DNA of 64,000 bases. Source: Macrostomum lignano (Eukaryota). The notes beneath the pieces are model-generated. The model had not been told where the DNA came from. It searched no databases and worked only from the letters and a program-made list of their open reading frames with translations. Shown one piece after another: positions 30,417-59,008 of this stretch. The translations under genes were made by a program, and so were the position numbers. Location of the stretch: positions 124,001 to 188,000 of the forward strand of contig NIVC01000958.1 in assembly GCA_002269645.1 (NCBI GenBank), read 5' to 3'. The stretch's first letter is position 1; each line of letters starts with the position of its first letter.

Positions 30417-30709
30417 AGTAGAAGGCATGAGGGGGCTTTTGGGACAAAATTTTTCACATCCTCCATAATCCCATTAAATCCATCTATATTATCCCCAACA
30501 GAATCAGAAAAAAAGGGGGGTCGCACTTGCTCCAAAAACTTTGAACGTAATCCCATTAAATCCATCCATATTATCCCCATCAGAATCAGAAAAAAAGGGG
30601 GGTCGCACCTGCTCACAAAACCTCCTCCATAATCCCATTAAATCCATCCATATTATCCCCGACAGAATCTTGAAAAAGGGGAGGGGTCGATAATCGTATT
30701 AAATCCATC
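30417..30709 (+). repeat. Polinton left TIR, outer part (with ~84-bp subrepeats)
   Basis: Reverse complement of ~58690-59008; 23-bp deletion relative to the right TIR near 30690. Confidence 0.95.
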
Positions 30710-31675
30710 TGTTGTGACCTGTGTCACAGTGCTCCCCTGGTGCAAGTGCACTTTGATAGTTGTTGACTTTGGTAGTTGATTATTGTTACCCCCCCCCCCC
30801 GGCTCAAGCCAGTCTGGAGCTATGAGCCCTTTGGCTGAGCCTCTGCTCTCTTTCTCTCTCTCTCTCGCCTTGGCTGTTTAGCCCTTTGGCTAGCCGTGCT
30901 GATTGGCTGGGCCTCTGCTCTCTCTCCCTCTCCCTGGCCGTGCGCGCTTCCACCCTCCCCTCGCCGCAGCCAATCAGCTGTCAATCAGCTCCATTGTTTA
31001 AGCCCTTTCTCCCCCCCCTTGTTTGCGCCCCTGCCCCTTTTTACTCGTTATTTAAGGCGACGCTCAGACCCCGCCCCTTTTCTCACCGTGCCTGCGCCCA
31101 TTTGCGCCCACCGCGATAAATAAACGAACGTGACCAGCGATCAGCCGTAAAGACGGTCTCTTACTGCGAAGACTCAATTTATTGCAATCGATCGGCCTTC
31201 CCGTGTATGAGTGCTATAATCGACCCGGCCCGGTAAGCTGTCGAGACAATTGCCTGTGTTCCTCGGGGTCGCTCTCCTGATCTCTCACTCTCTCACTCTC
31301 TCCTCAGTCTGACTCACCAGGCTGTCGAGTGGCCGACCGCCCGCAGCCCTCTCTCTCTTCCTTGACTCACCAGGCTGTCGAGTGGCCGCCCGCCCACAGC
31401 CCTCTCTCTTTTCCTTGACTCACCAGGCTGTCGAGTGGCCGACCGCCCGCAGCCCTCTCTCTCTTCCTTGACTCACCAGGCTGTCGAGTGGCCGCCCGCC
31501 CACAGCCGCCCCTCCCCTCTCTCTCGACTTCTCAACCTTGACCTCCCCCCGAAGTGTCCGTACGCCTCGGGGTCGCCGATCGAGCTCGTAAGCCCTGGGC
31601 AGTCCAGTACCCGAACCCCGACACCGCTACCCGTCGCCCAACCCGGCCGTGCCAGCGAGGAAGGGGGATACAACA
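30710..31675 (+). repeat. Gypsy 5' LTR (966 bp)
   Basis: TGTTG...CAACA; four ~55-bp internal repeats (CTCACCAGGCTGTCGAGTGGCCG...) at ~31310-31510. Confidence 0.96.
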
Positions 31676-31676
31676 T

Positions 31677-31694
31677 TGGCGCCCGAACAGGGAC
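31677..31694 (+). promoter_or_regulatory. Primer-binding site for tRNA-Lys(UUU)
   Basis: TGGCGCCCGAACAGGGAC immediately after the LTR; this is the canonical 18-nt tRNA-Lys3 PBS. Confidence 0.93.
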
Positions 31695-31718
31695 TGCTCA
31701 GTTTGCTTGTGAGCTGTC

Positions 31719-32699
31719 ATGGCGAATGTGGACGAACTGATTCGGCTGCTAGCCGAGCGTCTGCGAGCGGATGGACCAGCCCAGCCACCGAGACTCCCGA
31801 AGCCCGTGAAGTACACGTCAAGCATGAATTTTCGACTCTGGCTGCGCTCTTTCAACGCTTATTGCGACTCCGCCGAGATTGACGAGGAGCATCGCCGCGA
31901 GCACTTGATGAGCATGCTGGATCTCGCTACGGCGTACGCTGCGGTCGATAATCTGAACCTGCCGGGACCCGACGATCCTGTGGATCCGCTGGACTACGAG
32001 GGATTCACCGCCCGGTTGGAGGCTCGCTTCTCCCGGTACCGGACAGAGCAGGACAGCAAGGTCGAGCTAAAAACCCGAGATCAGAAGGATGGCGAGTCGT
32101 TGGAGGCCTACGCAGATGCTCTCCTTGAACTGGTGCGCTGTGCCTACCCGGCGGCAACTGCCGAGCTGCAGGACGACCTCGCGAAGGATCGCTTCATGCA
32201 AGGGGTGAGACTCTCCGACCTCCAGCGAGAGAAGCTCTACCTGCAGCAGCCCGAAGGTCTGGTGGCAGCACAACGCGCGGTGAGGCAGCTCGAGGCGGCG
32301 TCCAAGGCGGCGAAGGGACCGAGATCGGCTGGAGCAACTGGCAGCGGCCACCGAGGAGTCTTCGTGGTGAGCGGCGCGGCGGAATCTGTGCCTCGGGAGG
32401 ATGGAGCCTACTCCCAAGAAAAGGACAAAGAGCTCGAGGAGTTGAAGAAACTGGTGAGGCAGCTTCAAGGCAAAGTGGTTCAGCTCGAGTCGCTGAGAGC
32501 GGAACCGCATAGCAGCGCCGCAGCTCGACCGACCGACTCCGACGAAGGCGACCATCAGAAGCCTCGACGAACGGGAGGAATTCGCTGCTTCTTCTGCAAC
32601 AAGCCAGGGCACATCGCGACTAACTGCCCAACCCGTCAGCAACAGGGAAACGGCAAGGGGAACTTCCGCAGGGGCGAGGGAGTTCCGCCGAGACAGTAG
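31719..32699 (+). CDS. gag: Gypsy Gag with CCHC zinc knuckle
   Basis: CFFCNKPGHIATNC; QKDGESLEAYADAL (Q-x-x-x-E-S motif). Confidence 0.92.
   Translation: MANVDELIRLLAERLRADGPAQPPRLPKPVKYTSSMNFRLWLRSFNAYCDSAEIDEEHRREHLMSMLDLATAYAAVDNLNLPGPDDPVDPLDYEGFTARLEARFSRYRTEQDSKVELKTRDQKDGESLEAYADALLELVRCAYPAATAELQDDLAKDRFMQGVRLSDLQREKLYLQQPEGLVAAQRAVRQLEAASKAAKGPRSAGATGSGHRGVFVVSGAAESVPREDGAYSQEKDKELEELKKLVRQLQGKVVQLESLRAEPHSSAAARPTDSDEGDHQKPRRTGGIRCFFCNKPGHIATNCPTRQQQGNGKGNFRRGEGVPPRQ
32645..32686 (+). promoter_or_regulatory. Predicted -1 ribosomal frameshift signal (G GGA AAC + 7-nt spacer + 9-bp hairpin)
   Basis: Heptamer in gag frame at 32645-32651; stem 32659-32667 / 32678-32686; the pol (-1) frame is open from here to the protease. 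Confidence 0.8.
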
Positions 32700-32803
32700 A
32701 GGCCCCAACCCGAGACGAAGATGCAGCCCCGGAGCGACGTGCAGCAGGATGTCCGGCGGACTGCTCAAGAGATAGAGATCAACCTGCAACAGCTTTTAAT
32801 CCC

Positions 32804-34204
32804 GTGTCAATCTACGTGTCGGTAAAAATTGGCGAGATTGAGTTGCCGTGTCTGTTGGATTCGGGCTCGGTCATGTCGCTGGTGAACGAGAGGACCTGGC
32901 GGCAGTTGAGCAAGTCGGTTCGAGTTGAACTCAGCCCTTCGGAAACCCACCTGATCTCAGCGAACGGAACTCCCATGAATGTGTTAGGATGCGCGTCGCT
33001 TCCCCTACAGTTCGGATCAGAAACTTTACAGACGCCAATTGCGGTGGTCCAAGGGGTCGGCTACGAACTGTTGCTAGGCACCGACTTCTTACGCCGCCAC
33101 CGGTGCCAAATCGATTTCGCCGGAGGAGTTTTCCGCGTGAACGGTTCACGTGTGCCAATCCGAGAGACCAAGCACAAACCAGTCGTCTGCCGGTTGTACC
33201 TGAACGAAAACTTGATCATTCCGGCCAATCACGAACGGACCGTCTCAGCCAGGATTCGGAGAACAGCGACACAGAATTCCGGAGTGCTCGGCGTCGCCGA
33301 ACCAGACGAAAAACTGAAGAGCGATGAGAGACCAATGCTAGCCAGGAGCGTCTGCCTCATCCAGCAGGGCAACACCCTACCAGTTCACTTCGCGAATGTC
33401 ACGGACTCCGAGCTGCGGCTGCGGAAGGGAGCTGTCATCGGCTGGTTTCGACCATCAGATCCGGCTCAAGAGGTTCTGGTAGCCAGCATCGAAGAGCAAG
33501 CGTCGGTTTTACGACCCAGCTGCGATCCATGGGACCCAGAGGCGGCACTGAACCAGCACGGCTCCAAGCAGCTCACGGGGGCAGACAAAGCGAGTTTCCT
33601 AAGATTGGTGAATCGATACGCAGATGTTTTCGCAGAGAGTACAGCGCGCCTCGGGACGACGGACATCGTGCAGCATGAAATTGAGACCACCGGAACAGCC
33701 GTAAAACAGCCTCCGCGACGGCTACCGCCACATTGGCGCGGCGAAGTCGACCGACAAATCGACGAGCTTTTGGCAACGAAGATGATTGAACCGACCCAAT
33801 CGCCGTGGAGTTCGCCAGTGGTCTGTGTCCGTAAAAAGAATGGGGAACTGCGACTGTGTGTCGACTACAGAGAGTTGAATCAACGAACTGTCAAGGACGC
33901 CATAGCAATCCCGCGTGTCGATGACGCACTTGAAGCGCTCGGAGGTGCGGCTGTATTTTCGACGCTCGACCTTTGCTCCGGCTATTGGCAAGTTAAGGTC
34001 AAAAGGGAGGATCAAGAAAAGACTGCTTTTGTCATTCCGCATCGGGGGCAATTCGCGTTCAAGGTGCTGCCCTTCGGATTGACCAATGCGCCGGCGACAT
34101 TCACAAGGTTGATGAATATGGTACTACACGACCTTCTGTGGAAAATGGCGCTCGTCTACATCGACGATATCATCATTGGTCCCGAACTGTCAGCGAGCAT
34201 CTAA
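32804..34204 (+). CDS. pol: Gypsy Pol part 1: aspartic protease + RT N-terminus (true start via frameshift at ~32650)
   Basis: LLDSGS, SPWSSPVVCV, RLCVDYR, LDLCSGYWQV, LPFGL, YIDD. Confidence 0.92.
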   Translation: MSIYVSVKIGEIELPCLLDSGSVMSLVNERTWRQLSKSVRVELSPSETHLISANGTPMNVLGCASLPLQFGSETLQTPIAVVQGVGYELLLGTDFLRRHRCQIDFAGGVFRVNGSRVPIRETKHKPVVCRLYLNENLIIPANHERTVSARIRRTATQNSGVLGVAEPDEKLKSDERPMLARSVCLIQQGNTLPVHFANVTDSELRLRKGAVIGWFRPSDPAQEVLVASIEEQASVLRPSCDPWDPEAALNQHGSKQLTGADKASFLRLVNRYADVFAESTARLGTTDIVQHEIETTGTAVKQPPRRLPPHWRGEVDRQIDELLATKMIEPTQSPWSSPVVCVRKKNGELRLCVDYRELNQRTVKDAIAIPRVDDALEALGGAAVFSTLDLCSGYWQVKVKREDQEKTAFVIPHRGQFAFKVLPFGLTNAPATFTRLMNMVLHDLLWKMALVYIDDIIIGPELSASI

Positions 34205-36621
34205 CGAATCTCGAGGCGGTATTCCAGCGCCTGCGCGCAGCCAACTTGAGGCTAAAGCCATCTAAGTGCAGATTCCTGGCCGATGAGGTCAAATTCCTTG
34301 GCCACGTCGTGTCAAAGGACGGAATCGATGTCGACCCGGAGAAGATCAAGGAAGTCCGTGACTGGAGCATTCCAAGAAATGCAAAAGACCTTCAGTCGTT
34401 CCTGGGTCTGGCTGGTTACTACCGAAACTTCATACCAGAATTCTCGATAGTCGCTGCACCACTTTTTGATCTGACAAAGAAAGACAAGCCGTTCAGTTGG
34501 AGAGAGGAACACGATGAGGCCTTCAAAAAGCTGAAAGAAGAATTGACCGGTTGCCGCGTGATGGCCTACCCGAACTTCGACCCCACGGCTGGTGAGTTCA
34601 TCTTGGATACCGATGGAAGTACCCGACAGGGTCTCGGAGCAGTCTTGTCGCAGGTACAAGAAGACGGGTCAGAGCGGGTTATTGCGTACGGGAGTCGGCG
34701 TCTGCAAGGGGCCGAATTCAACTATTGCACGACACGAATCGAGCTCCTGGCGCTGGTGACATTCGCAGAGAGGTTCCGGTACTATCTACTTGGCCGGAGG
34801 TTCCGGGTGCGCACCGACCACGCAAGTCTGCAGTGGCTCCGAAGTATGAGGCAGCCGGAAGGCCAGTTGGCTCGGTGGATGGAGAGGTTGGCGCCATTCG
34901 ACTTCGCAGTGGAGCATCGGCCAGGGGCGCGTCATCAGAATGCGGACGCGCTGTCACGCAAGCCGCCGCGACGACATCCCGAAATGGATAACTGCCCGTC
35001 GTGCCGGACTGATGACCTCCCCGGGGTCAGGGTAACGACGCTGCTCGGGTTGCTCAGCCGAGATGAGCTGGCAGCAGCACAAGCTGTGGACAACGACATC
35101 GCTCCAGTTTACCAGTCGATGCACGCCGGCCGAGCAAACGAAGAGCCACCTCGGGGTGCGTCACCAACGACCCGAGCCATCTGGGCACAAAAGCCTCGGC
35201 TGGAAATTGTGGACAACACCCTCGTCATCAAGGATCTGGGACGTCACCCACCGCGGGCTGTTCTCCCGAAGAAATTGATCCCCGACGCTCTGCAGACGCT
35301 GCACTCTGGACCAGGAGGTGGACACTTCGGCGTAGCAAAGACTCTGGAGAAAGTCAGGAACCGATTCTGGAGACCCGGCTTGAAGCGAGAGGTCGAGGAG
35401 TTTGTGCGAAGGTGTGACGACTGTAACCGGAGCAAGCCCGGGATGCGGCGGAAGGCCCCATTGGAGCCGATTCCCAGCAGCCATGTGTTTGAAAGAGTGA
35501 TGGTGGATTTGATTGGACCACTGCCAACCAGCGTCCGAGGCAACAAATACATACTGACGATGCAGGACGCGTTCAGTAAGTGGCCAGTGGCAGTACCGGT
35601 GCCAGATCAGACGGCCAGCACCTGTGCAAGGGCAATGCTCGAGGAGTGGGTCTGTCACTACGGAGCCCCAGGGACAATCCACTCGGATCAGGGAGCCAAT
35701 TTCGAGTCGCAATTGATCGGCCAGCTGTGCGAAAGTCTGAATATCCGAAAGACGCGTACGACCGCCTATCACCCCTCTGGAAACGGCCAAGTGGAAAGCT
35801 TCAATAAGACGCTGACTGCAGTGATCCGGGCGCACCTGGTGAAGGAGCCGGATCAGAGGCGGTGGGACGAATTCGTTGCCCCGGCGCTCATGGCGTATCG
35901 CTCCAGTGTGCACCGCGGCACCGGCTACTCACCCTTCTTCCTTCTGCATGGTCGCGAGATGTCTCTGCCAGTTGACTTGGGAGTGGCGCGCCCACTGGAC
36001 ATCGAACCGTACTGCGAGGAAGTCCAGAACCTGCGGGAGACGCTCGTGGAAGCCCATCGGGTGGTGCGTGAGAGAATAACGTCATATCAACGAGTGCAGA
36101 AAGACTGGTACGACCGGAAGGTGAAGGGTCGAGAATTCGTGGCTGGCGACGAGGTGTTCGTCTACAACCCCGTGTTGAAGGCCGGTGCCAAAGCGAAGCT
36201 CCACTCACCCTGGACCGGACCTGCCGTAGTTCTCGAGAAGCTGTCGGAGACGCGCTATAGGATTCGACAGGAAGGTCGACGGAAGCCGATCAAAGTGGTG
36301 CACTTTAACAACCTCCTGCCTCGGTACCGGAAGTACCCGGTCGACGGCACCGGTGGCCCTCGGCGTCCTGCACCAAGGAGGTACCACCCAGGTCCTGCTC
36401 AAGAGACGGAATCCGTCAGGGAGGACTCGCAGGAATCGGACGATGAGGATGAGGAGCGATGGTGGCGACATTCCGGGCGGGTTCGAGAGGAGGGAGAACC
36501 AATGGATGTGCAGCAGCCAGGAGTGCAGCCGCAGCCGGAAGCGCCAGTTGAAGTCATCGAAGGTCGACCCCAGAGGGATCGAAGGGTTCCGCAGCGTTAT
36601 GGAACGCCCGTTTATTATTAA
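34138..36621 (+). CDS. pol: Gypsy Pol part 2: RT C-terminus, RNase H, integrase; separated from part 1 by a 1-nt deletion at ~34185
   Basis: FLGHVV, TDGS, ELLAL, TDHASL, HHCC zinc finger, DLIGP/SDQG/VESFN, GPY/F-like PWTGP; restoring one T gives YIDDIIIWSRT. Confidence 0.92.
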   Translation: MENGARLHRRYHHWSRTVSEHLTNLEAVFQRLRAANLRLKPSKCRFLADEVKFLGHVVSKDGIDVDPEKIKEVRDWSIPRNAKDLQSFLGLAGYYRNFIPEFSIVAAPLFDLTKKDKPFSWREEHDEAFKKLKEELTGCRVMAYPNFDPTAGEFILDTDGSTRQGLGAVLSQVQEDGSERVIAYGSRRLQGAEFNYCTTRIELLALVTFAERFRYYLLGRRFRVRTDHASLQWLRSMRQPEGQLARWMERLAPFDFAVEHRPGARHQNADALSRKPPRRHPEMDNCPSCRTDDLPGVRVTTLLGLLSRDELAAAQAVDNDIAPVYQSMHAGRANEEPPRGASPTTRAIWAQKPRLEIVDNTLVIKDLGRHPPRAVLPKKLIPDALQTLHSGPGGGHFGVAKTLEKVRNRFWRPGLKREVEEFVRRCDDCNRSKPGMRRKAPLEPIPSSHVFERVMVDLIGPLPTSVRGNKYILTMQDAFSKWPVAVPVPDQTASTCARAMLEEWVCHYGAPGTIHSDQGANFESQLIGQLCESLNIRKTRTTAYHPSGNGQVESFNKTLTAVIRAHLVKEPDQRRWDEFVAPALMAYRSSVHRGTGYSPFFLLHGREMSLPVDLGVARPLDIEPYCEEVQNLRETLVEAHRVVRERITSYQRVQKDWYDRKVKGREFVAGDEVFVYNPVLKAGAKAKLHSPWTGPAVVLEKLSETRYRIRQEGRRKPIKVVHFNNLLPRYRKYPVDGTGGPRRPAPRRYHPGPAQETESVREDSQESDDEDEERWWRHSGRVREEGEPMDVQQPGVQPQPEAPVEVIEGRPQRDRRVPQRYGTPVYY

Positions 36622-36648
36622 GAGCGGACGTGAGTGCGTGCGTAATGT

Positions 36649-36880
36649 CGCGTCATCTCCTGCGTCATAAATAATTGGTTCGAAGCATCATCCGCGTCAT
36701 CTCCTGCGTCATAAATAATTGGTTCGAAGCATCATCCGCGTCATCCCCTGCGTCATAAATAAGTGGTTCGAAGCATCATTCGCGTCATCTCCTGCGTCAT
36801 AAATAATTGGTTCGAAGCATCATCCGCGTCATCACCTGCGTCATCAACATTTGGTTCGAAGCATCGTCTGCGTCATCACC
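36649..36880 (+). repeat. Five 44-bp tandem units between pol and the J-domain ORF
   Basis: CGCGTCATCTCCTGCGTCATAAATAATTGGTTCGAAGCATCATC at 36649, 36693, 36737, 36781, 36825. Confidence 0.95.
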
Positions 36881-37086
36881 CGCGTTATTGAAAACTGGGC
36901 TCGTGTTATTGCCTCTGCTTCACAAACAAAAATATATATTTCTCCTCTTAAGGCCCGTCAGTGGAGGTCCCACCTGCCCAACCCTGCCATCAGGGATGAA
37001 GGATCGGCGCCCCAAAGAGGCTCGAAGGAACCACTGCCCTGCTCTCAAAAGTGAGTCGTGGTTGTTGCAGGCACTGCTTTCCGGGC

Positions 37087-37968
37087 ATGGACCTCTACGC
37101 CGAGTTTGGTGTCAGCCCCTTCGCGACGGAGGAGGAGCTGCGACGTGCGTACCGCCGTGAGAGCCTGCGACGGCACCCCGACAAGTGTGGACCCGGTGGA
37201 ACGGAGAATTTCCAGAGGCTGCAGCATGCGAGTGCGGTCCTGCTGTGTCCGTTTCGACGAGCGCTGTACGACCGGTTCGGGCAGGATGCCGTTAGCAACC
37301 CGCTCGAGTGCGCCCGGTATTTTGTCCCGCCGGACGGGATGTGCGTCCCGGAGGAGTTTGTCGTAACGATTGAAGACGAAACAGAAGAGTCAGACGAGGA
37401 CAGGGAGTCGGAAGGAAGCGAGCGTGGTGGTTGCGGCGGCGAGGAGACTGCTCAGAGCTGCTGTGAAATCACGCAGTCAGAGGAAGAAGAGCTCTTGAAT
37501 GAATTCGACGGCGAAACTTCGATGTCAGAAGACGAACCGGAGCTCGTCATCGACCAACGGGAGTCGCCAGCGTGGCTGATGAGGAGCGAGCCGAGTACCG
37601 AGGTGGAATACACCTGGAGCGGGGAGGCAACGCAGCGAAGAGCTCGAATCCGGTCGGAGCTTCGGCACGCTTTGTTGTCGGGGAGTCCAGCTGCGATGTT
37701 CCGGCTTTTGACTGAGATGGTGGGATTGTGCGGCAGCGAGCGGCTGGATCATCGACGCGAAATCGCCGAGCTTTTGGCTCAGACTGTCAAGTTCATTCTC
37801 CGTGACATCAGCGCCAAGTGTCGGGGTCATGCTCGGCGTGTCTGGCGGCGGCCTGCCTTCAAGCGAAGCACTCGGTTCGTCATGAGTGTTGCGATCCCTC
37901 AGTTTGAACAAATCGACGGAGGACGCGTGTTGGGGTTGTTGCGCCGGGCGGCGGAGGTGGCGGTCTAG
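37087..37968 (+). CDS. DnaJ/J-domain protein (~293 aa from ATG 37087) in the env position of the Gypsy element
   Basis: DLYAEFGV...EELRRAYRRESLRRHPDK...FQRLQHASAVL...RRALYDRFG is a canonical J domain with HPD at 37174-37182; then an acidic linker and a helical C-terminus; intronless. Confidence 0.88.
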   Translation: MDLYAEFGVSPFATEEELRRAYRRESLRRHPDKCGPGGTENFQRLQHASAVLLCPFRRALYDRFGQDAVSNPLECARYFVPPDGMCVPEEFVVTIEDETEESDEDRESEGSERGGCGGEETAQSCCEITQSEEEELLNEFDGETSMSEDEPELVIDQRESPAWLMRSEPSTEVEYTWSGEATQRRARIRSELRHALLSGSPAAMFRLLTEMVGLCGSERLDHRREIAELLAQTVKFILRDISAKCRGHARRVWRRPAFKRSTRFVMSVAIPQFEQIDGGRVLGLLRRAAEVAV

Positions 37969-38094
37969 GGGGTTCTGGGGCAGGATGCCAGGGCGGGCAA
38001 GAGACCTTCACTCCTTCATTTCATCCCATCTCTCCTCTGATCGTCGTTGTGATCCCTCTGTTTGGCACTGGGAGCGGCCCCGAAGGAAGGGCAG

Positions 38095-38605
38095 GGAACA
38101 CTCTCGGCCATGCCCGGCATTCTCGGCCGCTGCCCGGCATTCTCGGCCGCTGTCCGGCATTCTCGGCCATGCCAGGCGTTCTCGGCCGCTGCCCGGCATT
38201 CTCGGCCGCTGCCCGGCATTCTCGGTCGCTGTCCGGCATTCTCGGCCATGCCCGGCGTTCTCGGTCACTGCCCGGCATTCTCGGCCGCTGCCCGGCATTC
38301 TCGGCCGCTGTCCGGCATTCTCGGCCATGCCAGGCGTTCTCGGCCGCTGCCCGGCATTCTCGGCCGCTGCCCGGCATTCTCGGCCGCTGCCCGGCATTCT
38401 CGGCCGCTGTCCGGCATTCTCGGCCGCTGCCAGGCGTTCTCGGCCGCTGCCCGGCATTCTCGGCCGCTGCCCGGCATTCTCGGTCGCTGTCCGGCATTCT
38501 CGGCCATGCCCGGCGTTTTCGGCCACAGTCCGGCATTCTCGGCCGTGCCCGGTGTTCTCGGCCTGTCCGACATCCTCGGCCCCTGTCCTGCGCTCTCGGC
38601 CGCTG
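38095..38605. repeat. GC-rich ~20-bp tandem repeat (CTCGGCCGCTGCCCGGCATT)n in the Gypsy 3' UTR
   Basis: Directly visible, ~25 degenerate units. Confidence 0.93.
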
Positions 38606-38697
38606 CCTGACACTCTTGGTCTCTTTCATTCAGTTTCATTTCATTACATTTTTTTTTCATTTTCATTCAGTCAAAGCGCGTCGTTTTCTTTTTTTTT

Positions 38698-38708
38698 AGG
38701 GGGGAGGG
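38698..38708 (+). promoter_or_regulatory. Polypurine tract
   Basis: AGGGGGGAGGG after a T-run, directly before the 3' LTR. Confidence 0.85.
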
Positions 38709-39671
38709 TGTTGTGACCTGTGTCACAGTGCTCCCCTGGTGCAAGTGCACTTTGATAGTTGTTGACTTTGGTAGTTGATTATTGTTACCCCCCCCCCGGC
38801 TCAAGCCAGTCTGGAGCTATGAGCCCTTTGGCTGAGCCTCTGCTCTCTTTCTCTCTCTCTCTCGCCTTGGCTGTTTAGCCCTTTGGCTAGCCGTGCTGAT
38901 TGGCTGGGCCTCTGCTCTCTCTCCCTCTCCCTGGCCGTGCGCGCTTCCACCCTCCCCTCGCCGCAGCCAATCAGCTGTCAATCAGCTCCATTGTTTAAGC
39001 CCTTTCTCCCCCCCCCTTGTTTGCGCCCCTGCCCCTTTTTACTCGTTATTTAAGGCGACGCTCAGACCCCGCCCCTTTTCTCACCGTGCCTGCGCCCATT
39101 TGCGCCCACCGCGATAAATAAACGAACGTGACCAGCGATCAGCCGTAAAGACGGTCTCTTACTGCGAAGACTCAATTTATTGCAATCGATCGGCCTTCCC
39201 GTGTATGAGTGCTATAATCGACCCGGCCCGGTAAGCTGTCGAGACAATTGCCTGTGTTCCTCGGGGTCGCTCTCCTGATCTCTCTCTCTCTCACTCTCTC
39301 CTCAGTCTGACTCACCAGGCTGTCGAGTGGCCGACCGCCCGCAGCCCTCTCTCTCTTCCTTGACTCACCAGGCTGTCGAGTGGCCGCCCGCCCACAGCCC
39401 TCTCTCTTTTCCTTGACTCACCAGGCTGTCGAGTGGCCGACCGCCCGCAGCCCTCTCTCTTCCTTGACTCACCAGGCTGTCGAGTGGCCGCCCGCCCACA
39501 GCCGCCCCTCCCCTCTCTCTCGACTTCTCAACCTTGACCTCCCCCCGAAGTGTCCGTACGCCTCGGGGTCGCCGATCGAGCTCGTAAGCCCTGGGCAGTC
39601 CAGTACCCGAACCCCGACACCGCTACCCGTCGCCCAACCCGGCCGTGCCAGCGAGGGAGGGGGATACAACA
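38709..39671 (+). repeat. Gypsy 3' LTR (963 bp)
   Basis: Differs from the 5' LTR only by homopolymer/dinucleotide length changes and a few substitutions. Confidence 0.96.
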
Positions 39672-39675: not shown

Positions 39676-39915
39676 CATATTATCCCTGACAGAATCAGAG
39701 CATAACATGTGTCCACTAACACCTGTTATGCTCACTGACACTGACATAATCCACTAACATCCACCCAGAAACAATCAGAAAATAATCTGCATTCTTCTCC
39801 CCACATTCAATCCGCAACGTGCTACCACATCCCTAAGACTTTAAATCCCCAAACCCTGGGTCCTTACCCTTTAAAAAATCTAAATTTTTAATAAAAATGT
39901 TTCCAGTTGTCTCTC
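39676..39915 (+). repeat. Polinton left TIR, inner part
   Basis: Reverse complement of 58453-~58690. Confidence 0.93.
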
Positions 39916-41826: not shown

Positions 41827-41849
41827 TTTTTTTTCACATAAAAAAATAT

Positions 41850-47747: not shown

Positions 47748-47810
47748 TTTTATGTCATTTTTATGAGTTTTAATACACTTTCTCTTAAACCTAAACCCAA
47801 CCTCCACCTC

Positions 47811-49547: not shown

Positions 49548-49741
49548 AGGGTACTTTCCGAGGGTACAAGACTAGTCCCGAAATGACACATCTAAGTCCC
49601 AAAATGACACATTTAAGTCCCGAAATGACACATCTAAGTCCCAAAATGACACATCTAAGTCCCAAAACGACACATTCAAGTCCCGAAATGACACATCTTC
49701 TAAATGATTTATTATTTAATTTTTTTTCAATCATAGAAAAA

Positions 49742-50542: not shown

Positions 50543-50558
50543 AATTTGCTATTAAAAG

Positions 50559-51525
50559 ATGTCTATTAATTTTGCAGGTGAATCCATTTCTGGAAACAGC
50601 GCTCTTACATCAGCTCAAATATCCATCCTTGACAGGCGATATATCAACAGCGACGAAAAGATCCCAGAGATCAAACTGAATAAAAACAGACTGAAACAAT
50701 TAGAACGTTCCATGCACCAGTTGCAAATGAACATGGAAGATCTCAGGCTTAAAGTAGCTAGACAGAAGTTTGACAGTGATAAGCTTTATGTGCCGTTGTT
50801 AAACGCAACTAATGAACTAAGGTCAGAAATAACTTCGATAGTCTCGCTAATCAACGGCTTGAGATCATCAGTTAATCTTCTGGGAAATTCCATTGATAGA
50901 CGGATGCGTATTCTTGAAGGAGGAGTTTTCACAAACACAGCTAAAGTGAATAATTTAGAAGAGTTCATGAACCAGTCAACAGCATTGCATGATAGAATTA
51001 AAGAAAACGTCGCAACCAACACAGTTAAAGTGAGGAATTTAGAAGAGTTCATGAACCAGTCAACAGCGTTGCATGATAGAATTAAAGAAAAACTTGAAGC
51101 ATTAAAGAGAAACGATGTATCACACAGTAGCTATCTCAGTGTTGCCAGCCATCACAGTCCCAATCGCAATCCCGCTCGGCTCTGTGGGTGCTGCATGTGG
51201 ACTTATTTCAACAATTACTGGAGCATTAGCGCGAAACAGGCGAAAAAAACTAAAGCAGCTACAGGAGAAGCAAGTAAAAGAGAAAGGGGTGCACACTTCA
51301 ATCATAGGGTACATTTCAAGGGCAATCGAGGATAAGTTCATTTCAGAGGACGAGTTCAAAACCATTCAGGATCTTTATGAACAATCAATTCGAATGAACT
51401 TGAACATGGTCGGTACTGATGACATGAGTCAGCTGAGAAATGAACTCGAGAAAGTTCTTCAACATTATGCGGAAAGAAAGTCGGCAAGAAATTCGGCAAG
51501 AAGGACAACGAGAAATGCACAATGA
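50559..51525 (+). pseudogene. Deletion-fused coiled-coil/membrane-protein genes of copy 2
   Basis: Junction at 51136 joins equivalents of 46412 and 46952 via AGCT(A/G)TCT microhomology. Confidence 0.85.
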
Positions 51526-51529
51526 ACCC

Positions 51530-51931
51530 TTATGAAACACAGGTACGAATAATTTCCTTGTAGGTGTTTCGTGTTTTGGTCATTGCATACAAAACAGTCA
51601 TGCACAGCTCACCGCAAATATCACTGCTAAGACCTTGGAGAATAAAGTCTGAGCGATAAATTTTTTTATTCTTTTTTCCCTTCATATAATTTCTTAGCTC
51701 TTCTGGTACTGCCGTCCCATAGCTATCGAAGTAATAACACTTGTGCTTGCGATCGGGATCAATCACCCAGCAAACCCAATGAGATCCTGGTTTATCGGTG
51801 GTGTCAAAGTTCATGATGCCGCATTCTTTTCTTAGAGGAAAATCAGGCAGAGTGTCCCTCATAAATATTCCTCTAAAGTTTGGGATTTCCAGTTCGTTAG
51901 CCAAATCTTCGAGAAAGTTATTTGTCGTCAT
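51530..51931 (-). CDS. Adenain-like cysteine protease, copy 2
   Basis: Protein identical to copy 1 from MTTNN. Confidence 0.9.
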   Translation of the reverse strand: MTTNNFLEDLANELEIPNFRGIFMRDTLPDFPLRKECGIMNFDTTDKPGSHWVCWVIDPDRKHKCYYFDSYGTAVPEELRNYMKGKKNKKIYRSDFILQGLSSDICGELCMTVLYAMTKTRNTYKEIIRTCVS

Positions 51932-51994
51932 TTTTATGTCATTTTTATGAGTTTTAATAAACTTTCTCTTAAACCTAAACCCAACCTCCACCTC

Positions 51995-54900
51995 CTAAAC
52001 CCAACTTCCACCTCCTAAGCCTAATCTCCAATGCCCGAACGGTAGACTGTTGATATTGTCATCAAAAATGAATCGCTTGTTATCTGCACCTGACAGTCCA
52101 ATCTTCTTTTGCTGAATTGTGTGAATAATATGGTTTTTAGATTGTAGCTTTGAGAACTCATGTGATGTCTTTTTGTTGCAATTCAAGGCGTCTCTGTATT
52201 CAGTTTCATTAATTTCCTTTCTAACCAGACGTTTCGGAATTACCTTTGATTTTTTGACTGGGTCTGACGACTCACATTTTACAAAATAGGACTTTGCTCT
52301 CAACCCAATGAATTCAGTGATTATGTCACCAGCAATCTCGTCCTTCATTTTCCCAATCACTTTCTTGTTAGTGGCGTCAAACACTTGATCGCCATTCTGT
52401 GTCTTGCAAGATTCATCATACTCAGACAAGTCAAACAAATCTTTTTGCTGCAGCATGTCCTGATAAATGTCTCCTGTTTGAATGTCCATAATAAAACTGT
52501 CTGTGTCAGTGTACAAGAGTTTCATTTTATCCTTGTACTGCTGCTTCATGCCATAGTAGAACTGGTACATCAGACGTTTTGATTCATCGAGAACAGTGAC
52601 ACCTGTATAGATCGGCTTGCGCAGCGTCACCTTGGTTTTGTAAAATATGATCACACCTAAGTAGCTATTAAAGATATGGAGTTCTTTGAATGTTGGCTTT
52701 GACATATTTGCCTGAATAACAGCAGGCTCTGATGAGGTAACAAGTTTCAGGTTTGTTCTTTTCCGCTCATTCTCAAGAGTCTTACCATAGACAGAGTTGT
52801 TGGCCAACTTAAAGAGGTTCTTGTCAAAGTTGTTGGTTGCTTTGGTCCTAAACTGGGTGTTCTTATCAATGTAGGGTTTCATCCAAGCTTCCTCTGTAAA
52901 TGTAAGAGCCCTGTGAACTTTGGTGACCCTGCAACCAAGTGAGATAAAATACTGAAGCAGTTTGTAATGGATTTTGTAACGTGTCTTGTTGTTTAGATTC
53001 TGTGTTAGTTTCTCTGTATGTTTTTTTTCTGTTCCTGACAGGTGCCAAGTTCCATAGGGAGTTTCGATTATTTTCGGGCACTTGATGTTCTCTGGGAAGG
53101 GTGGAAAGTCAGAGAAATAGTCGTGAAGCTCTGGTGGAATGTAAACATCAACCTCATAAATGGCAGCCAATGAAAAATCCCACTTTAGTTCTGATGAGGG
53201 TAGCCATCGAAAATCTCTAACTGGAAGATCTTGACTCATCGCCCACCCGTAGAGATTATTAGCGTCCAAGTAAGTAATGTAGTTTGAGGGCTGCTCCTTA
53301 TTGTAAGATCCAATGTAGGGATTGTTTGCTTTTGCATACCTGTTAACGCAAATTGAGATTCCCCCTCGCTTTGACGATTCGACAAAATTGTACATGTCAA
53401 TGTCTGTAAGAAGTTCAATGTACCAATCTGGATCTTGATCCCATTTCATTTTAAGCAAAGATTCCCAGCTAGTGGCAGGCAGAGACACATAATGTGCTGG
53501 ATCGAGGCCATATGCTGTGTACCAGGTGTATCTGAAGGTTTCAAACACATCAGCCAGCAGAAACACATCTGTGAAGAGGTAAAGCAGGTGATACTGGAAG
53601 AAGTTTTGACAATTAAAGTAATTATAGACATGCTTCGCGTGCTCATAGTCTTTGTCAGAGATTCCAGAGTCTGTTAGCTTTGAAAAGAACTTCTCCTGTG
53701 GTGGTAAACCTTCTTCAAATACGTGATACCCAGTAATATTTTCATAGGGGTAGAAGCCTTTCTTTCTTAAAAGTTTAAATGATTCATCAGTGTTAATTTT
53801 ACTTGCAAACATCTTTGTATATGTACATTGCTCATCTTTTAGATTCTTGCTTAGTTCGTCTAGACTGGCAGCTAGAAATTGATATGAATCCTTCAGTCTT
53901 ATTTTACCTGTACCCGAATTATCCTGTTTAATATCAACACACTTAAACTTCTCCTTGTTCTCTGCGATGCAGTCAAGGTGTATGTCTGGAATCATGCCGA
54001 TTTTTTCAACTATTAAATGCATGTCATAGTTCTTTGCGTTGTGACAAAATATTGTTAGATCATGAATGTTCGATTTTAGCTTTAGATTACAGGTGTTATG
54101 CGCTGCACCTCTAAATTTCCCAGTATAGTGGCAGTGGTCCCTAACGGTGGGGTTTTTAATATCAGTGCAAGTTAACTGTTTCCTGCAGATGTGGCAATGA
54201 GTTGCTGATAGGAAATTGCTTTCATCCTCCTCAGACATACTTATTGGAACAGGTTAAAGGGTGCTAATCAATTTTTGCAACTCTAACATTCTGGCAATAA
54301 ACTGCTCCACACACTGCTCTCCAAAGAAATAATTATACTCAACAAGTCCTTTTGTATTAATAAAGGCATATGCTACTGAATTGGGGATATGTTTTTGAGT
54401 TGGAGTTTGTTTTTGTGTTTCCGGCATGATTGAGCATTCGAAATCAGCATATACAACAAATGGGAGCTTCTCCATCTTGTGATAGTTCTTAAAACGGAGA
54501 TACTTCTCTTCAGCTGAAGGAAGAGAGCAGTTTGTCGGGTGATCCTCGCATGATAATTCATGTTCTGTTAGCTTTTCAAAGCGTTCAGGTCCACTGTAAT
54601 GCTTAAGGCACAAGCGGCAGATGGCAACAGCCTCGTGATGATTATTCAACTGCTTGTGAATGAGTCTTGAAAGATCTTTAATCCAAACATAGTGAGCCTC
54701 CTCTAGTAAATTACCAATCACTAGAAGATCCACTTCAATCCGCCTTTTCCCCTCAGGATCTAAAACGTCTTTGCTACATCTGACCGGTTGAACTTTCTCA
54801 GTTTTTTCACTCCACTCAAAGACTGTGATTCTAATTTTGTTATTAAACACTTCTTCTAGCTTTGGGATCTGAGAGATCGCCAAGCCTGCTTTGTCAAACC

Positions 54901-55864
54901 TGATTCCCTTCTTTTCGCATTCGATAATATAGTAGTTGAAATAATTTTGATAATTTGAGGTTCTTTCGGGGTGGTGAGGGACACTATCATAAAGAAGTGC
55001 AGAAAGAACTGCCCATAGAGCACAGCAATTGTCTTTATTTTTAACATTTATGCAAGCTTTTTTACCGGCTAGCTTATGCGGGAGCTCTATATAAGAGGAG
55101 GCTTTAAGTGGGTCATATTTCATGACCATGACAGTCGCTCTTTGAATCCCTCCCACGACCCATCCGGAACCTCTGGATGTAAACGCTTCAATTTTCTTAT
55201 TGACATCTTGAAGGAAAGGATCCAGTGTGTCTGTTGGGGTGAATGGCTTTGCCTTTGTTGTCATGTAATACTCGAGATGCTCAGTGGGTTTCGCAGGCAT
55301 ATAAAACGCAATCTTGAATGATATCTGTAGTTTAAAGGTCTTGCGTGTTTTGAGTGTGTGATCAACAACTGATTGGATGCTGTCTTTATAGTCGTAGATG
55401 TTTGCGGTGGTATCCTTAATTGGGATTGTGTACTCTATGTAATGTTCTGTAAACTTCCTCTGTGCAAAATTAATCTCTTCAATGGCAAGCTCCGACTCTT
55501 TTAAATGGATTAATTGCTCTAATTTCTCTTGTTCCTGCTTATTTTGTGGGTACTTTGCTTTTTCACCAGTGAGAGTTTCGTATTTGTTAACTAAGTTGCG
55601 ACTCCTCTCTTGGTGTTCCTTTGCAGGATTTTTTATAGGCGCATACTGGTTGAATTCTAATTGATTGATGATTTCCAACTGTTTTTCATAGCTTCCCAGG
55701 TGACCAGGGTCGGTGTTGAACTTTTGTTTGCATGCTTCTCTTAGTGAATTACTTTTGTCTTGAAATGAGACGCCTTTTGAAAAATGTTTGTTGACTAAAT
55801 CTTTTGCTGGATTAGCTTTTGGCATTTTTTTCTCTAAAATAAAAAAATTTTTGAGGGTGACCAC
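51995..55864 (-). pseudogene. polB: Protein-primed family B DNA polymerase interrupted by one in-frame TAA (54254-54256)
   Basis: YADFEC (ExoI), HNAKNYD (ExoII), YLFTDV (ExoIII), YLDANNLYG, KLANNSVYGK, YTDTDS; His-Me finger CHIC...DHCHYTGKFRGAAHNTCN; both ORFs in the same frame (ISTL*PVPISMSEED). Confidence 0.93.
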
Positions 55865-55913
55865 CCTGATAGAAAAGTTAAACTGTTTCTACATCCTATA
55901 AGTAGTGTTAGGT

Positions 55914-56375
55914 TTATGAAGCTGGATAAAGTGGGGTTTTAAACCTAAACCCAGCATTGTGCAGTGTCATGATAGCTTTGACAATGTCAGACTTGCTTAC
56001 AGAATTTTCCTGCTCACAATCATCACGATCGAGGCAGCCCTCTCCTGCCTTAATTGTTATACCTTTGTCTCTTGCAATCTTTTGCAATTCCAGCTGGTGG
56101 GCTCTATCATTCCCAGCTTTAACAGCAGTTGCTACACCTCCAGCTACACCACCTGCGGCACTTACAGCGCCTGCAATGATCGGAATAAGAGCTGCTAATG
56201 GTAGGATTCCTCCTGACTTTTCATCTGTGATGCTGTGTCTTTGCTCATTACACTGAACTATTTGCTGCACGGGATCGATTTTTACTTTGGCACCTTTAAT
56301 TGATATAAGACCTGGTTTCTTTGATTCAATGATTCTTTTGAGTTTATTGATGGTTCTGGTTTCAATCTTTGTCAT
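55914..56375 (-). CDS. Adenovirus pX/mu-precursor-like protein
   Basis: KSGGILPLAALIPIIAGAV resembles adenovirus pX RGGILPLLIPLIAAAIGAV (from memory). Confidence 0.7.
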   Translation of the reverse strand: MTKIETRTINKLKRIIESKKPGLISIKGAKVKIDPVQQIVQCNEQRHSITDEKSGGILPLAALIPIIAGAVSAAGGVAGGVATAVKAGNDRAHQLELQKIARDKGITIKAGEGCLDRDDCEQENSVSKSDIVKAIMTLHNAGFRFKTPLYPAS

Positions 56376-56391
56376 TTTTTATTTTAATATT

Positions 56392-57408
56392 TTAATTAAT
56401 TTCTGTGTCAGCCGGTATCACTAGGAGTTCAGCTCTAGTGAATGACCGTGTGGGGGATTTAGGGTTAAAGGCCTGAGATAAAAAGTAATATTCTCCAGAG
56501 TCGGAGGTGAAATGTCTGTCTATTTTATGTACATCAAGGCTGAAGTATGGATCTGTAGCTCTTCTTTTGGTGTCTTTCTCTAGCTCTCCAGGTAGATATA
56601 AAAAGCGTAGAAACTCAGAGTTTGTCAGTATGTATGGTGATTCAACTCCTGGAAGCTTAGGGTAGTTCGAGGTGTGTTTTGTGTTGTGCTTGTTGTCTGT
56701 TCTATGAGATGACTTAAGTTCGACAGTGTCTTGTTTAATTGCATGGGATGGTTTCAATCCAGTCATGCGCGTGACTTCATTGTTCAGTTGTTCTATAACA
56801 GTGGGGAGGCGGTCTGTCCATTTTGAATAGTACTGACCACTTTTTAGTTTCAGCTCTTCAGCTGTCTGCTTAGTGAATAGCCTCTTGGCTAGAGTTAGAC
56901 TGAATCTTTCCACAAAAGCCTGGTCTCTGTGCAAGTTTGTTCTGCCATAGCGAATCTCTGTGTTTTTCTTTTCCATAAGGGATTTCACTGCACCCATGAA
57001 TTCCTTACCCGGGTCTGTCATAAGGGTTTGGGGGTGTGTGAGCGGAGAGTTTTTATAAATATCTTGCAGTGCGCTGGCAACAACCTCTGACTTCTTCGTC
57101 TTGAGTGGGCGAGCTTCCTTATATCTGGAAGCAATGTCTATTACTGTGAGAGCATACTTGTAGCCCGAGTCATTGGGGAGAAACAGAAGATCTGCTTGGT
57201 GCGCCTCATTAGGTTTATAAATACTGAAATGGGGCCTTTCAAATTTTACTGGTGGGAAATAGACTTGAAAGACAGCCTGCTTAGAGAGCCATTTTTCTAC
57301 TTTAGCTTTTGGTTCCTTACTTAGTTCTGCGAGTTTGGTGACTGCATTTTTTCCTACAAAGAATCCTTTGTCGCTGAAGTAGAGTTTTTTAAGTTTCTGA
57401 TCTGTCAT
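56392..57408 (-). CDS. Retroviral-type (rve, DDE) integrase
   Basis: HQADLLFL, YKYALTVIDIASRY, MTDPGKEF, QAFVERF. Confidence 0.92.
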   Translation of the reverse strand: MTDQKLKKLYFSDKGFFVGKNAVTKLAELSKEPKAKVEKWLSKQAVFQVYFPPVKFERPHFSIYKPNEAHQADLLFLPNDSGYKYALTVIDIASRYKEARPLKTKKSEVVASALQDIYKNSPLTHPQTLMTDPGKEFMGAVKSLMEKKNTEIRYGRTNLHRDQAFVERFSLTLAKRLFTKQTAEELKLKSGQYYSKWTDRLPTVIEQLNNEVTRMTGLKPSHAIKQDTVELKSSHRTDNKHNTKHTSNYPKLPGVESPYILTNSEFLRFLYLPGELEKDTKRRATDPYFSLDVHKIDRHFTSDSGEYYFLSQAFNPKSPTRSFTRAELLVIPADTEIN

Positions 57409-57439
57409 TTTTTTAAAAAAGAAAATTTAAAATAAAATA

Positions 57440-57889
57440 ATGCAACGCTGTGGTGGTAACTTAGATTCACATGGACTGATAGAAAAGCTTCCTCACCCAA
57501 ACAAAGGCTGGACCATTCCCGGGTACAAATATTGTGGGCCTTTGAATCCACTTGAAATACAGTTAGATAAAAACAATAATCCAAATCCTGGGCATGAGCC
57601 TGTGAATGAGCTAGACTCTGTCTGCATGTGGCACGACGTTAAGTATAGGGATTATCCTGAGGAGAAGAATCGCTGGGACAAAGAAATGCTTAGGAGACTA
57701 GACAATATAGGGGCTTCAAGCGGATTTCGTGAGTCGATCGCTCGGAAGCTAGTTAAAGCTGTTATTTTTAGTAAGACAAAACTGGGGTTGGGGGTCGGCG
57801 GCTGTTTGGGGGCGGGCTTTGCATTGCACGCACCAAGGAAAGAATTAGGAAGACTGCTGAAAGAGCTGGGGGTTGAGAGAGCAGAATGA
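57440..57889 (+). CDS. Parvovirus VP1u-type phospholipase A2 (PLA2X-like)
   Basis: Ca-binding loop PGYKYCGP, PVNELDSVCMWHDVKY (HDxxY), C-terminal KTKLGLG. Confidence 0.88.
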   Translation: MQRCGGNLDSHGLIEKLPHPNKGWTIPGYKYCGPLNPLEIQLDKNNNPNPGHEPVNELDSVCMWHDVKYRDYPEEKNRWDKEMLRRLDNIGASSGFRESIARKLVKAVIFSKTKLGLGVGGCLGAGFALHAPRKELGRLLKELGVERAE

Positions 57890-58167
57890 TTCAAGCAAGA
57901 AAATTCAGCTGGATTGGCGGCTGTTTTGGAGAAGAGAGAACCGGGAGGGGGATTTGCATTGCACACGCCAAATAGAGACTGCGTACATCGACAGTGCATT
58001 TCCCAGTATTTGAGGTGGTTTTCCGACAGTTTTCCGACAGTTTTCCGACAGTTTTTGTTGAGCAAAAAAAATCCGACAGTTTGTCGGATATTTGTCGCAA
58101 ACAAAAACTCATTATCTACTAATAGTAGTCCTAGCATATAGTACTCCTATTAGTACTCCTAATAGTA

Positions 58168-58227
58168 GTGGGTGTTGATTTCAACGATGAAGAGTTTGTA
58201 TTGACGTTAATCATTGAGAGAATGTAA
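58168..58227 (+). pseudogene. 60-bp inverted copy of the penton gene 3' end
   Basis: VGVDFNDEEFVLTLIIERM* vs MGVDFNGEEFVLTLIIERM* (40963-41022). Confidence 0.85.
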
Positions 58228-58231
58228 GAAA

Positions 58232-58471
58232 TCACAATTGCCTAATGATTTCTGCAAAGTTATAGTAGCTGTCATAATCTTTTACATAGGTTACTCCATA
58301 CTTATGAAACCAGTGTCTTTGGAGAGCTAGATTAATATTGGGGACATTGATATCAACGCCGGGCCAATATTTTCTCATGTACTCGCTGCATTCTAGTTTG
58401 CATCGGTATTTGGATTTGTAGTTAGGCTCGTGCGCTTTGTAATAAGAACCTGGAGAGACAACTGGAAACAT
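58232..58471 (-). CDS. Small (79 aa) Polinton ORF starting inside the right TIR
   Basis: AAAAATG start; diverged paralog at 39897 with the protein sequence conserved. Confidence 0.6.
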   Translation of the reverse strand: MFPVVSPGSYYKAHEPNYKSKYRCKLECSEYMRKYWPGVDINVPNINLALQRHWFHKYGVTYVKDYDSYYNFAEIIRQL

Positions 58472-59008
58472 TTTTATTAAAAATTTAGATTTTTTAAAGG
58501 GTAAGGACCCAGGGTTTGGGGATTTAAAGTCTTAGGGATGTGGTAGCACGTTGCGAATTGAATGTGGGGAGAAGAATGCAGATTATTTTCTGATTGTTTC
58601 TGGGTGGATGTTAGTGGATTATGTCAGTGTCAGTGAGCATAACAGGTGTTAGTGGACACTTGTTATGCTCTGATTCTGTCAGGGATAATATGGATGGATT
58701 TAATACGATTATGTTCGAAGTTTTCGGAGCAAGTGCGACCCCTCCCCTTTTTCAAGATTCTGTCGGGGATAATATGGATGGATTTAATGGGATTATGGAG
58801 GAGGTTTTGTGAGCAGGTGCGACCCCCCTTTTTTTCTGATTCTTTTGGGGATAATATGGATGGATTTAATGGGATTACGTTCAAAGTTTTTGGAGCAAGT
58901 GCGACCCCCCTTTTTTTCTGATTCTGTTGGGGATAATATAGATGGATTTAATGGGATTATGGAGGATGTGAAAAATTTTGTCCCAAAAGCCCCCTCATGC
59001 CTTCTACT
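58453..59008 (-). repeat. Polinton right TIR (~556 bp, four ~84-bp subrepeats)
   Basis: Reverse complement of 30417-30709 + 39676-39915. Confidence 0.95.

Follow-up and report, generated by a model that had tools for sequence, protein, structure and literature searches.

Anatomy and decay of a capsid-encoding, adintovirus-like Polinton

Introduction

The locus described here raises two questions, namely, whether an integrated, capsid-encoding element is still close to an intact viral genome and whether relatives of it remain active in its host. The element lies at positions 30417-59008 of the window, that is, the whole 64,000-nucleotide stretch analysed (contig NIVC01000958.1, positions 124,001 to 188,000, forward strand), and all coordinates below are those of the window. 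It is a Polinton (Polintoviricetes) of the adintovirus kind, and we consider it very probable, from its anatomy and its lesions, that it represents a genuine recent insertion from a young family which has since decayed.

The names in use for such elements overlap. Adintoviridae is now Eupolintoviridae, in the order Amphintovirales of the class Polintoviricetes (PMC8502044; PMC12451622), and a bioRxiv text that describes a phospholipase as common in group 2 makes no distinction between Mavericks, Polintons and adintoviruses (bioRxiv 10.64898/2026.06.19.733378). Polintons are delimited by terminal inverted repeats (TIRs) of 100-1500 bp, a target-site duplication of 5-8 bp and a size of 13-25 kb (PMC10748475).

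Results

Boundaries and terminal repeats

The initial annotation had placed the element at 30417-59008, with an exact 6-bp target-site duplication (AGAAAA), AG...CT ends and near-identical TIRs, all of which was borne out by sequence comparison. The features that define the boundaries are as follows:

30417-59008: Polinton copy, 28,592 bp, by direct reading of the sequence
30411..30416, + strand: left target-site duplication AGAAAA, 6 bp
59009..59014, + strand: right target-site duplication AGAAAA, 6 bp
30417..30709, + strand: left TIR, outer piece, starting AGTAGA, with sub-repeats of ~80-90 bp
30710..39671, + strand: Ty3/Gypsy long terminal repeat (LTR) retrotransposon inside the left TIR, recognized by its LTRs, target duplication and domains
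39676..39915, + strand: left TIR, inner piece, beyond the Gypsy insertion
58453..59008, - strand: right TIR, ~556 bp

The element runs from AGTAGAAGG to CCTTCTACT (AGTAG...CTACT), with AGTAGAAGG reading inward from either end. When the Gypsy insertion is excluded, the two arms differ by 4 mismatches in ~533 aligned bases and by one 23-bp gap, which sits in the outer piece of the left arm, the 23 bp being present in the right arm. The resulting divergence of 0.75% (95% interval 0.2-1.9%) agrees with the earlier proposal of a recent integration, where 'recent' is meant in relative terms only. Subtraction of the Gypsy element (9 kb) and of a tandem duplication (4.2 kb) leaves 15,438 bp, close to the ~15 kb originally estimated. 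With a TIR of ~556 bp, a target duplication of 6 bp and a length of 15.4 kb without the insertion and the duplication, the element falls within the ranges given above for Polintons. The ends, repeats, target duplication, nested insertion and tandem duplication cannot be chance. No further Polinton or Gypsy pieces were found elsewhere in the 64-kb window.

Inward of the arms, ~220 bp display a much looser likeness (39916-40132 versus 58234-58452), with a sharp change ~556 bp from the end, which suggests older, longer repeats of which the outer part alone was kept uniform.

Gene content

The following genes were recognized between the repeats, including those for a protein-primed DNA polymerase (pPolB) and a phospholipase A2 (PLA2), together with several open reading frames (ORFs):

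40963..41856, - strand: candidate minor capsid protein (penton), 287 aa, open, directly downstream of the capsid gene
41850..43139, - strand: major capsid protein (hexon), 428 aa, open, double jelly roll
43164..44399, + strand: ORF with Gln/Pro-rich stretches and no significant Pfam match
44290..44802 and again 49035-49547, + strand: small basic ORF
44799..45818, + strand: A32-like packaging ATPase, open, with Walker A and B motifs (PF04665, 26.2 bits)
45832..46578, + strand: ORF containing an 84-bp repeat and probably forming a coiled coil, shortened by deletion in the second unit of the duplication
46579..47341, + strand: ORF with a hydrophobic middle, frameshifted, its 5' part absent from the second unit; possibly a counterpart of a conserved Polinton accessory protein
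47346..47810 and again 51530-51994, - strand: adenovirus-type cysteine protease, open, with His/Asp/Gln-Cys motifs (PF00770, at cut-off)
51995..55888, - strand: pPolB with an endonuclease VII/HNH insert, one frame with an in-frame stop at 54254-54256
55914..56378, - strand: stand-alone adenovirus pX (mu)-like core protein, open (PF05829, 30.1 bits)
56392..57426, - strand: retrovirus-like (rve) integrase, open, with D-D-E motifs (PF00665, 36.6 bits)
57431..57889, + strand: parvovirus-type PLA2 domain protein, open, with catalytic motifs (PF08398, 52.4 bits)

A Pfam scan covered 16 Polinton ORFs or ORF pieces, five of which reached the curated cut-off (Pox_A32, Peptidase_C5, rve, Adeno_PX and Phospholip_A2_4), with two relevant matches below it (DJR-like_dom and Endonuclease_7). 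Weak KilA-N, PilO and DUF677 rows were attributed to chance or to coiled coils and disregarded. The ATPase, protease, integrase, PLA2 and pX-like assignments of the initial annotation hold on the strength of these matches, and that of pPolB on its relatives (see below). Judged by motif patterns, the catalytic or binding residues of the ATPase, protease, integrase, polymerase and PLA2 are in place. The PLA2 carries no attached pX domain. Among the Polinton features tested, pPolB, the rve integrase, a double-jelly-roll capsid protein, an A32-like ATPase and an adenain-type protease are all present, with the penton as a candidate. Overall, the ends, the gene set and the capsid fold support the original description of an integrated, capsid-encoding, adintovirus-like Polinton.

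Several genes contain short repeats: in-frame tandem repeats of 21-bp units lie ahead of the ATPase core at 44829-44974, with one unit fewer in the second copy, the 84-bp in-frame repeat in the ORF after the ATPase lies at 46207-46367, and the PLA2 frame and the frame past its stop have a short repeated motif in common.

A divergent double-jelly-roll capsid protein

The assignment of the hexon was confirmed by its fold. A model built with 53 relatives reached pLDDT 90, and its closest match was PBCV-1 chain 8h2i_bu (Z 25.3, rmsd 3.9, 357 residues), followed by Sputnik (Z 21.6), mavirus (20.1) and adenovirus hexon (11.3); the top 16 rows of this search, against 48,161 chains, were all viral double-jelly-roll proteins. 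At the sequence level, the protein matches PF21738 (DJR-like_dom) weakly and below the curated cut-off, and its profile gave 0 matches to E 1 among PDB sequences. The same domain is matched by 52 of the 54 aligned capsid relatives, which places the protein on a divergent branch within a known family of capsids rather than in a new fold. Nine close relatives were found, seven at 70-77% identity and two at 43-44%. When 105 representatives were compared, five alone reached E 1e-30, and the best 50 predicted viral structures, an 'Adintovirus sp.' entry included, shared 6-12% identity with the capsid protein. In a quick tree of 54 rows, the protein and its relatives formed a 10-row clade on a long branch (0.98, SH-aLRT 100), and pattern scans of JGI metagenomes and IMG/VR, the reach of which is limited to close relatives, returned no capsid relatives. 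Judging from these comparisons, the capsid is unusually divergent and belongs to a small clade far from named sequences.

The penton claim fared less well: the size and position of the 287-aa protein fit, but no Pfam match was obtained, the PDB sequence search gave one chance match and the single-sequence model was unusable (pLDDT 34). Language-model features pointed to viral look-alikes in unnamed clusters (score 0.98), with a recognition value of 2274, just below the threshold of 2300. Its assignment as a single-jelly-roll penton is only a lead.

The protein-primed DNA polymerase

The two pieces of pPolB on either side of the stop, searched apart, align in order on all 30 of the full-length relatives tested (from 120 listed), for instance, at residues 252-573 and 577-1310 of P0011, indicating that the stop splits one pPolB gene. 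In total, 1908 relatives were detected among proteins of 1317-3760 residues, with the best at 44-47% identity; a pattern scan of IMG/VR, reaching close relatives only, found none. An organism is named for 4 of the 120 listed relatives, all of them corals, and the gene model from Stylophora also bears rve, endonuclease VII and PLA2 domains. PF03175 is carried by 12 of the 120 listed relatives, and two of seven that were rescanned match it at E ~1e-19; Pfam gave no PF03175 match for the window's own pPolB. A Beta-type pPolB, considered from this missing match, was dropped in view of the occurrence of PF03175 in the relatives, the coral relatives themselves and the place of Stylophora in the Alpha panel.

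The N-terminal piece contains candidate Cys and His motifs of the OTU-like domain that characterizes the N-terminal part of adintovirus PolB, with no profile match. The Endonuclease_7 match within pPolB is below the Pfam cut-off, and PHROGs added endonuclease VII alone; homing-endonuclease inserts are already known in polinton polymerases (PMC11161782; PMC10748475).

These results bear on whether the element might represent an undescribed genus- or family-level lineage of Polintoviricetes and not an ordinary adintovirus. The 10-row capsid clade on its 0.98 branch, the five of 105 representatives at E up to 1e-30, the 6-12% identity to the best 50 predicted structures and the separation of PLA2 and pX into two genes would all fit such a lineage. 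However, nearly all aligned capsid relatives (52/54) match PF21738, the 1908 pPolB relatives extend up to 44-47% identity and include the coral rve/endonuclease VII/PLA2 model, the gene content is the standard Polinton set, and virion genes evolve fast (PMC8502044). We consider a separate lineage of this rank unlikely.

Tandem duplication and lesions

Part of the element is duplicated in tandem:

44029..48773: tandem duplication, first unit
48774..52961: tandem duplication, second unit, with 539-bp, 21-bp and 1-bp gaps

The units differ by 12 substitutions in 4187 bases, or 0.29% (0.15-0.5). Short shared sequence is present both at the duplication joint and at the large gap, the joint being a 3-base overlap between non-homologous places. 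The 3' part of pPolB was doubled in the process and is found in the second unit as well as at 47811-48773. The substitutions between the units are distributed over codon positions 1/2/3 as 4/5/3, suggesting neutral decay after the duplication, and 2 of the 12 fall at stops.

Besides the single in-frame stop in pPolB, there is an in-frame stop at 44052-44054 in the ORF at 43164-44399, a frameshift near 47058, in an A-rich tract, in the gene at 46579-47341 and an early stop at 50486-50488 in the second-unit ATPase (from 49544). The frames of the capsid protein, penton candidate, first ATPase, protease, pX-like protein, integrase and PLA2 are open. The damage thus amounts to three in-frame stops, a frameshift, the 9-kb insertion in the terminal repeat, the 23-bp repeat gap and the 4.2-kb duplication with its gaps, to which short gaps seen in comparison with other copies and substitutions of 1.2-1.5% versus the common form of the family have to be added. 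The insertion, duplication, gaps, stops and frameshift refute the statement that only point lesions separate the copy from an intact genome. The stop in pPolB implies that the copy is unable to replicate by itself, and under the definition of an 'intact' Maverick (PMC8097293) the copy fails on the pPolB stop, the other breaks and the insertion in the terminal repeat. The divergences of the arms (0.75%), the duplicated units (0.29%) and the Gypsy LTRs (0.21%) suggest that the insertion came first and was followed by the duplication and the Gypsy element, with overlapping intervals.

The family in the host

The element occurs in 20 of the 24 listed public runs, which come from eight studies of one organism, with 39-62% of the sampled words of 39700-48700 recovered. 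Four of these runs, from four studies (X1, X9, X13 and X17) and all in the form of contigs, were compared with the window over 48790-60500. The long contigs listed differ from the window at 50 of 3417 (X13), 55 of 3555 (X17) and 19 of 1551 bases (X9), that is, by 1.2-1.5%. In X9, five long element contigs have depths of 1153-1437, compared to 10-16 for three flank contigs, a ratio of ~70-140; by rough inference from this one run's contig depth, the family is of the order of ~100 copies.

At three positions of the repeats, both arms carry a letter that the bulk of the contig depth lacks in each of the four runs; the copy's parent was probably already distinct from the common form, and the family probably includes more than one sub-lineage. 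Among the best supported coding differences to other copies, 15 of 29 are at third positions (p = 0.03; the 29 sites derive from 40 of 444 difference rows, after removal of a stop site and of a site private to the duplication), compared to 3 of 12 between the duplicated units; this is a weak sign of selection while the lineages replicated.

The initial annotation had suggested that active relatives may exist. Indirect support comes from the spread over 20 of 24 runs, the contigs at 1.2-1.5% and the depth ratio of ~70-140; the copy itself is broken, and no intact one came to light. From these sequences, it is plausible that relatives were active recently. We doubt the stronger proposition that the host carries an active family of ~100 copies, from a divergent undescribed capsid lineage with separate PLA2 and pX genes, in which some copies are intact and make particles; on the data at hand, it appears quite improbable. 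If it were true, the host, sequenced in at least eight studies, would be a practical place to seek the first animal Maverick-Polinton virion.

Some further features of the contigs were noted. Depth falls off strongly over the stretch 57783-58173, behind PLA2, in each of the four runs, and contigs of X1 and X9 join across 57904-58188, which suggests that copies vary there and that other copies may differ in their PLA2/pX arrangement. Each of the four runs covers the terminal repeat (58174-58955) more deeply than the interior, three of them several-fold; the two arms and the sub-repeats account for part of this excess, and the remainder might come from non-autonomous derivatives. A single contig of X9 (depth 13.4, no differences) joins 28 bases of the right end, under the 31-base rule, to the flank, which hints that X9 contains this insertion and may be the source sample. 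No empty site was seen in the contigs of the four runs. Among the runs that contain the element, none is listed as RNA, and X13 and X17 were not used as evidence of expression, as their RNA nature is only guessed and their contigs cover genes and terminal repeat alike.

Decay versus assembly artefact

Several points weigh against the reading of a recent insertion from a young animal family that has since decayed. The size of the family was estimated from contig depth, which is not a copy number. The letters common to both arms could equally reflect conversion between the arms. An animal host would fit the coral-named pPolB relatives and the surroundings rich in LINE, Gypsy and satellite sequences, and the word 'animal' itself rests on those 4 of 120 coral-named rows and on the known range of the class. 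The duplication joint at 48774 lies outside the compared stretch 48790-60500, and the site of the pPolB stop lies outside the 40 of 444 difference rows covered, so that other copies may or may not be open there.

The last two points speak for an alternative in which a near-intact copy acquired its stops, frameshift and duplication through errors of assembly, as does the location of the frameshift in an A-rich tract, a context in which long-read errors are common. However, 12 substitutions and gaps of 539 and 21 bp separate the two units, their joints bear short shared sequence of the sort left by repair or template switching, and the Gypsy element has its own target duplication. Furthermore, at the stop of the second-unit ATPase, the window's letter accounts for 8.3 of a depth of 861.2 in X9, near the single-copy level, so that at least this lesion looks genomic. 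Assembly error as a general explanation is very improbable.

Alternatively, two Polinton copies, either paralogues or alleles, could have been joined wrongly to give the duplication, given that an abundant and similar family strains assemblers and that a divergence of 0.29% would suit two alleles. Yet this divergence (0.15-0.5%) is far below the 1.2-1.5% that separates the window from other copies, a single target duplication is common to both ends of the element, and the joint ties non-homologous places through a 3-base overlap; we give a false join very little credence and retain the interpretation of a genuine insertion that decayed in place.

The nested Gypsy element and its J-domain ORF

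The retrotransposon in the left TIR is organized as follows:

30710..31675, + strand: 5' LTR (TG...CA), followed by a primer-binding site
31713-32699, + strand: gag with zinc knuckle
32624-34204, + strand: protease and reverse transcriptase (RT)
33997-36621, + strand: RT, RNase H and integrase
37087..37968, + strand: extra ORF, 293 aa, open, lying between pol and the 3' LTR, DnaJ/J domain at the N terminus
38709..39671, + strand: 3' LTR, with a polypurine tract just ahead

The element is flanked by a 4-bp target duplication, CATC (30706-30709 and 39672-39675), and its LTRs differ at 2 of 962 bases (0.21%; 0.03-0.75). The primer-binding site is one that we take to be of the tRNA-Lys type. Between 31713 and 36621, gag, protease-RT and RT-RNase H-integrase occupy three frames, and the frame change within RT indicates that the Gypsy copy is damaged.

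In its layout (LTR, gag, pol, extra ORF, polypurine tract, LTR), this element is the same as Ty3/Gypsy elements with an additional ORF, from which it differs by the DnaJ/J domain on that ORF. The domain matches PF00226 (E 1.4e-12), with an intact HPD motif, and the protein has an acidic middle. A search for relatives returned one generic DnaJ match among 2934 candidates, covering 22% of the ORF length, and no full-length relative. No J-domain Gypsy was found in the literature at the level of titles and term counts, nor by term in PMC13524379. The product could be an Hsp70-recruiting accessory protein, and the ORF would be either a kept accessory gene or a captured fragment; it is possibly the least known thing at this locus.

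Tandem arrays lie on either side of the J-domain ORF, at 36604-36942 (44-bp units) and 38090-38647 (GC-rich units of ~20 bp), and 53-bp repeats are present within the LTRs.

The surrounding window

Upstream of the Polinton, a non-LTR retrotransposon at 9249-12720 (+ strand) has two overlapping frames that encode endonuclease, RT and RNase H domains, and positions 1-30000 contain many satellites and minisatellites, with units of 39, 15, 12, 21, 30 and 4/8 bp. A diverged relative of the 39-bp array at 1-1240 is present near 29350-29770, and there is a 99% match between 29800-29889 and 1280-1369. In the right flank, 59461-59514 is a piece of an abundant host repeat found also at 18262-18318 on the other strand. 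Neither Rfam matches nor tRNA genes were found in the 64-kb window.

Discussion

From parent to decayed copy

The history of the locus can be reconstructed from the anatomy of the copy. A parent would have been copied by protein-primed synthesis from its terminal repeats with pPolB, and the full-length Polinton of ~15.4 kb integrated by means of the rve integrase, leaving the 6-bp duplication. The parent encoded a double-jelly-roll capsid protein, a packaging ATPase, a maturation protease, a pX-like core protein and PLA2, that is, a gene set for a particle; the genes are observed, and the roles attributed to them are those of their families, the penton being only a lead. In the class, the A32 ATPase packages the genome into the double-jelly-roll shell, the protease matures it, and PLA2 is thought to aid membrane entry (PMC10748475; PMC8502044; PMC8097293). 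After insertion, neutral decay brought the stop in pPolB, the other stops, the frameshift, the duplication, the deletions and the Gypsy element in the left repeat. Such a copy is non-autonomous, and its 28.6 kb would probably exceed what its own capsid can take. The family probably spread by germ-line copying and reintegration, possibly also as particles.

Whether particles still play a part bears on a further alternative, in which the family is today a genome-only, self-synthesising transposon that carries capsid genes without forming particles in this host. Such a state would agree with the statement in two sources that a virion has been observed for no Maverick-Polinton (10.64898/2026.06.19.733378; PMC8097293) and with the existence of high-copy families with defective members alone in axolotl, tuatara and pike (PMC8097293). 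On the other side, the open capsid gene, its conserved fold and the 70-77% identity in relatives from three collections suit long purifying selection on a particle. We regard the genome-only state as a possibility to be taken seriously, although not the one that we favour.

Decayed Polintons are ordinary, thousands having been catalogued in animals. The present copy is of value as a marker of a young, abundant family whose capsid is remote from named sequences, in an organism that has been sequenced repeatedly. The locus also records fast disabling, by stops, a repair-type duplication and a retrotransposon in the terminal repeat, within less than ~1% divergence. An animal Maverick-Polinton virion is unrecorded in the literature cited here, and a host with recent activity suits that question.

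Comparison with known systems

The element is the same as Eupolintoviridae in its pPolB, rve integrase, A32/FtsK ATPase, adenain-type protease, double-jelly-roll capsid, PLA2, pX, repeats, 6-bp duplication and size of ~15 kb. It is unlike them in that the copy carries breaks and has grown to 28.6 kb, the capsid stands far apart from the named sequences found, and the ends read AGTAGA rather than (AGT)2 or (AG)3.

At the genus level, with exemplars compared by description, the sequences lean towards Alpha, the Mayetiola class. A PLA2 gene is said to mark Alpha virion modules (PMC8502044), the nearest named pPolB relatives are those of corals, and PF03175, an Alpha hallmark, occurs in 12 of the 120 listed relatives; a Stylophora coral adintovirus is placed among the Alpha-PolB contigs (Fig. 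S2 of PMC8502044). Unlike in Alpha, PLA2 (57431-57889, + strand) and pX (55914-56378, - strand) are separate genes on opposite strands and not a PLA2X fusion, and the window's pPolB is without a PF03175 match. As for Betadintovirus, no Pfam match to the GasderminX or cupiennin-like genes, which are defined by HHpred, was obtained in the unassigned ORFs.

Further parallels are the vertebrate Mavericks (PMC8097293) and the polintoviruses of stony corals (PMC11131425), which likewise are endogenous and capsid-encoding, often in tens to hundreds of copies, most of them defective. In vertebrates, 134 intact Mavericks are reported from 17 species, with up to 287 copies (PMC8097293), and coral polintoviruses are described as expanded and expressed (PMC11131425). 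Given that intact, high-copy, capsid-bearing Mavericks have already been described from many animals in these two sources, our finding is less unusual than the first annotation implied. Unlike in the vertebrate Mavericks, the gene order of the present element departs from the two-module plan, and the copy is a fossil by the definition in PMC8097293.

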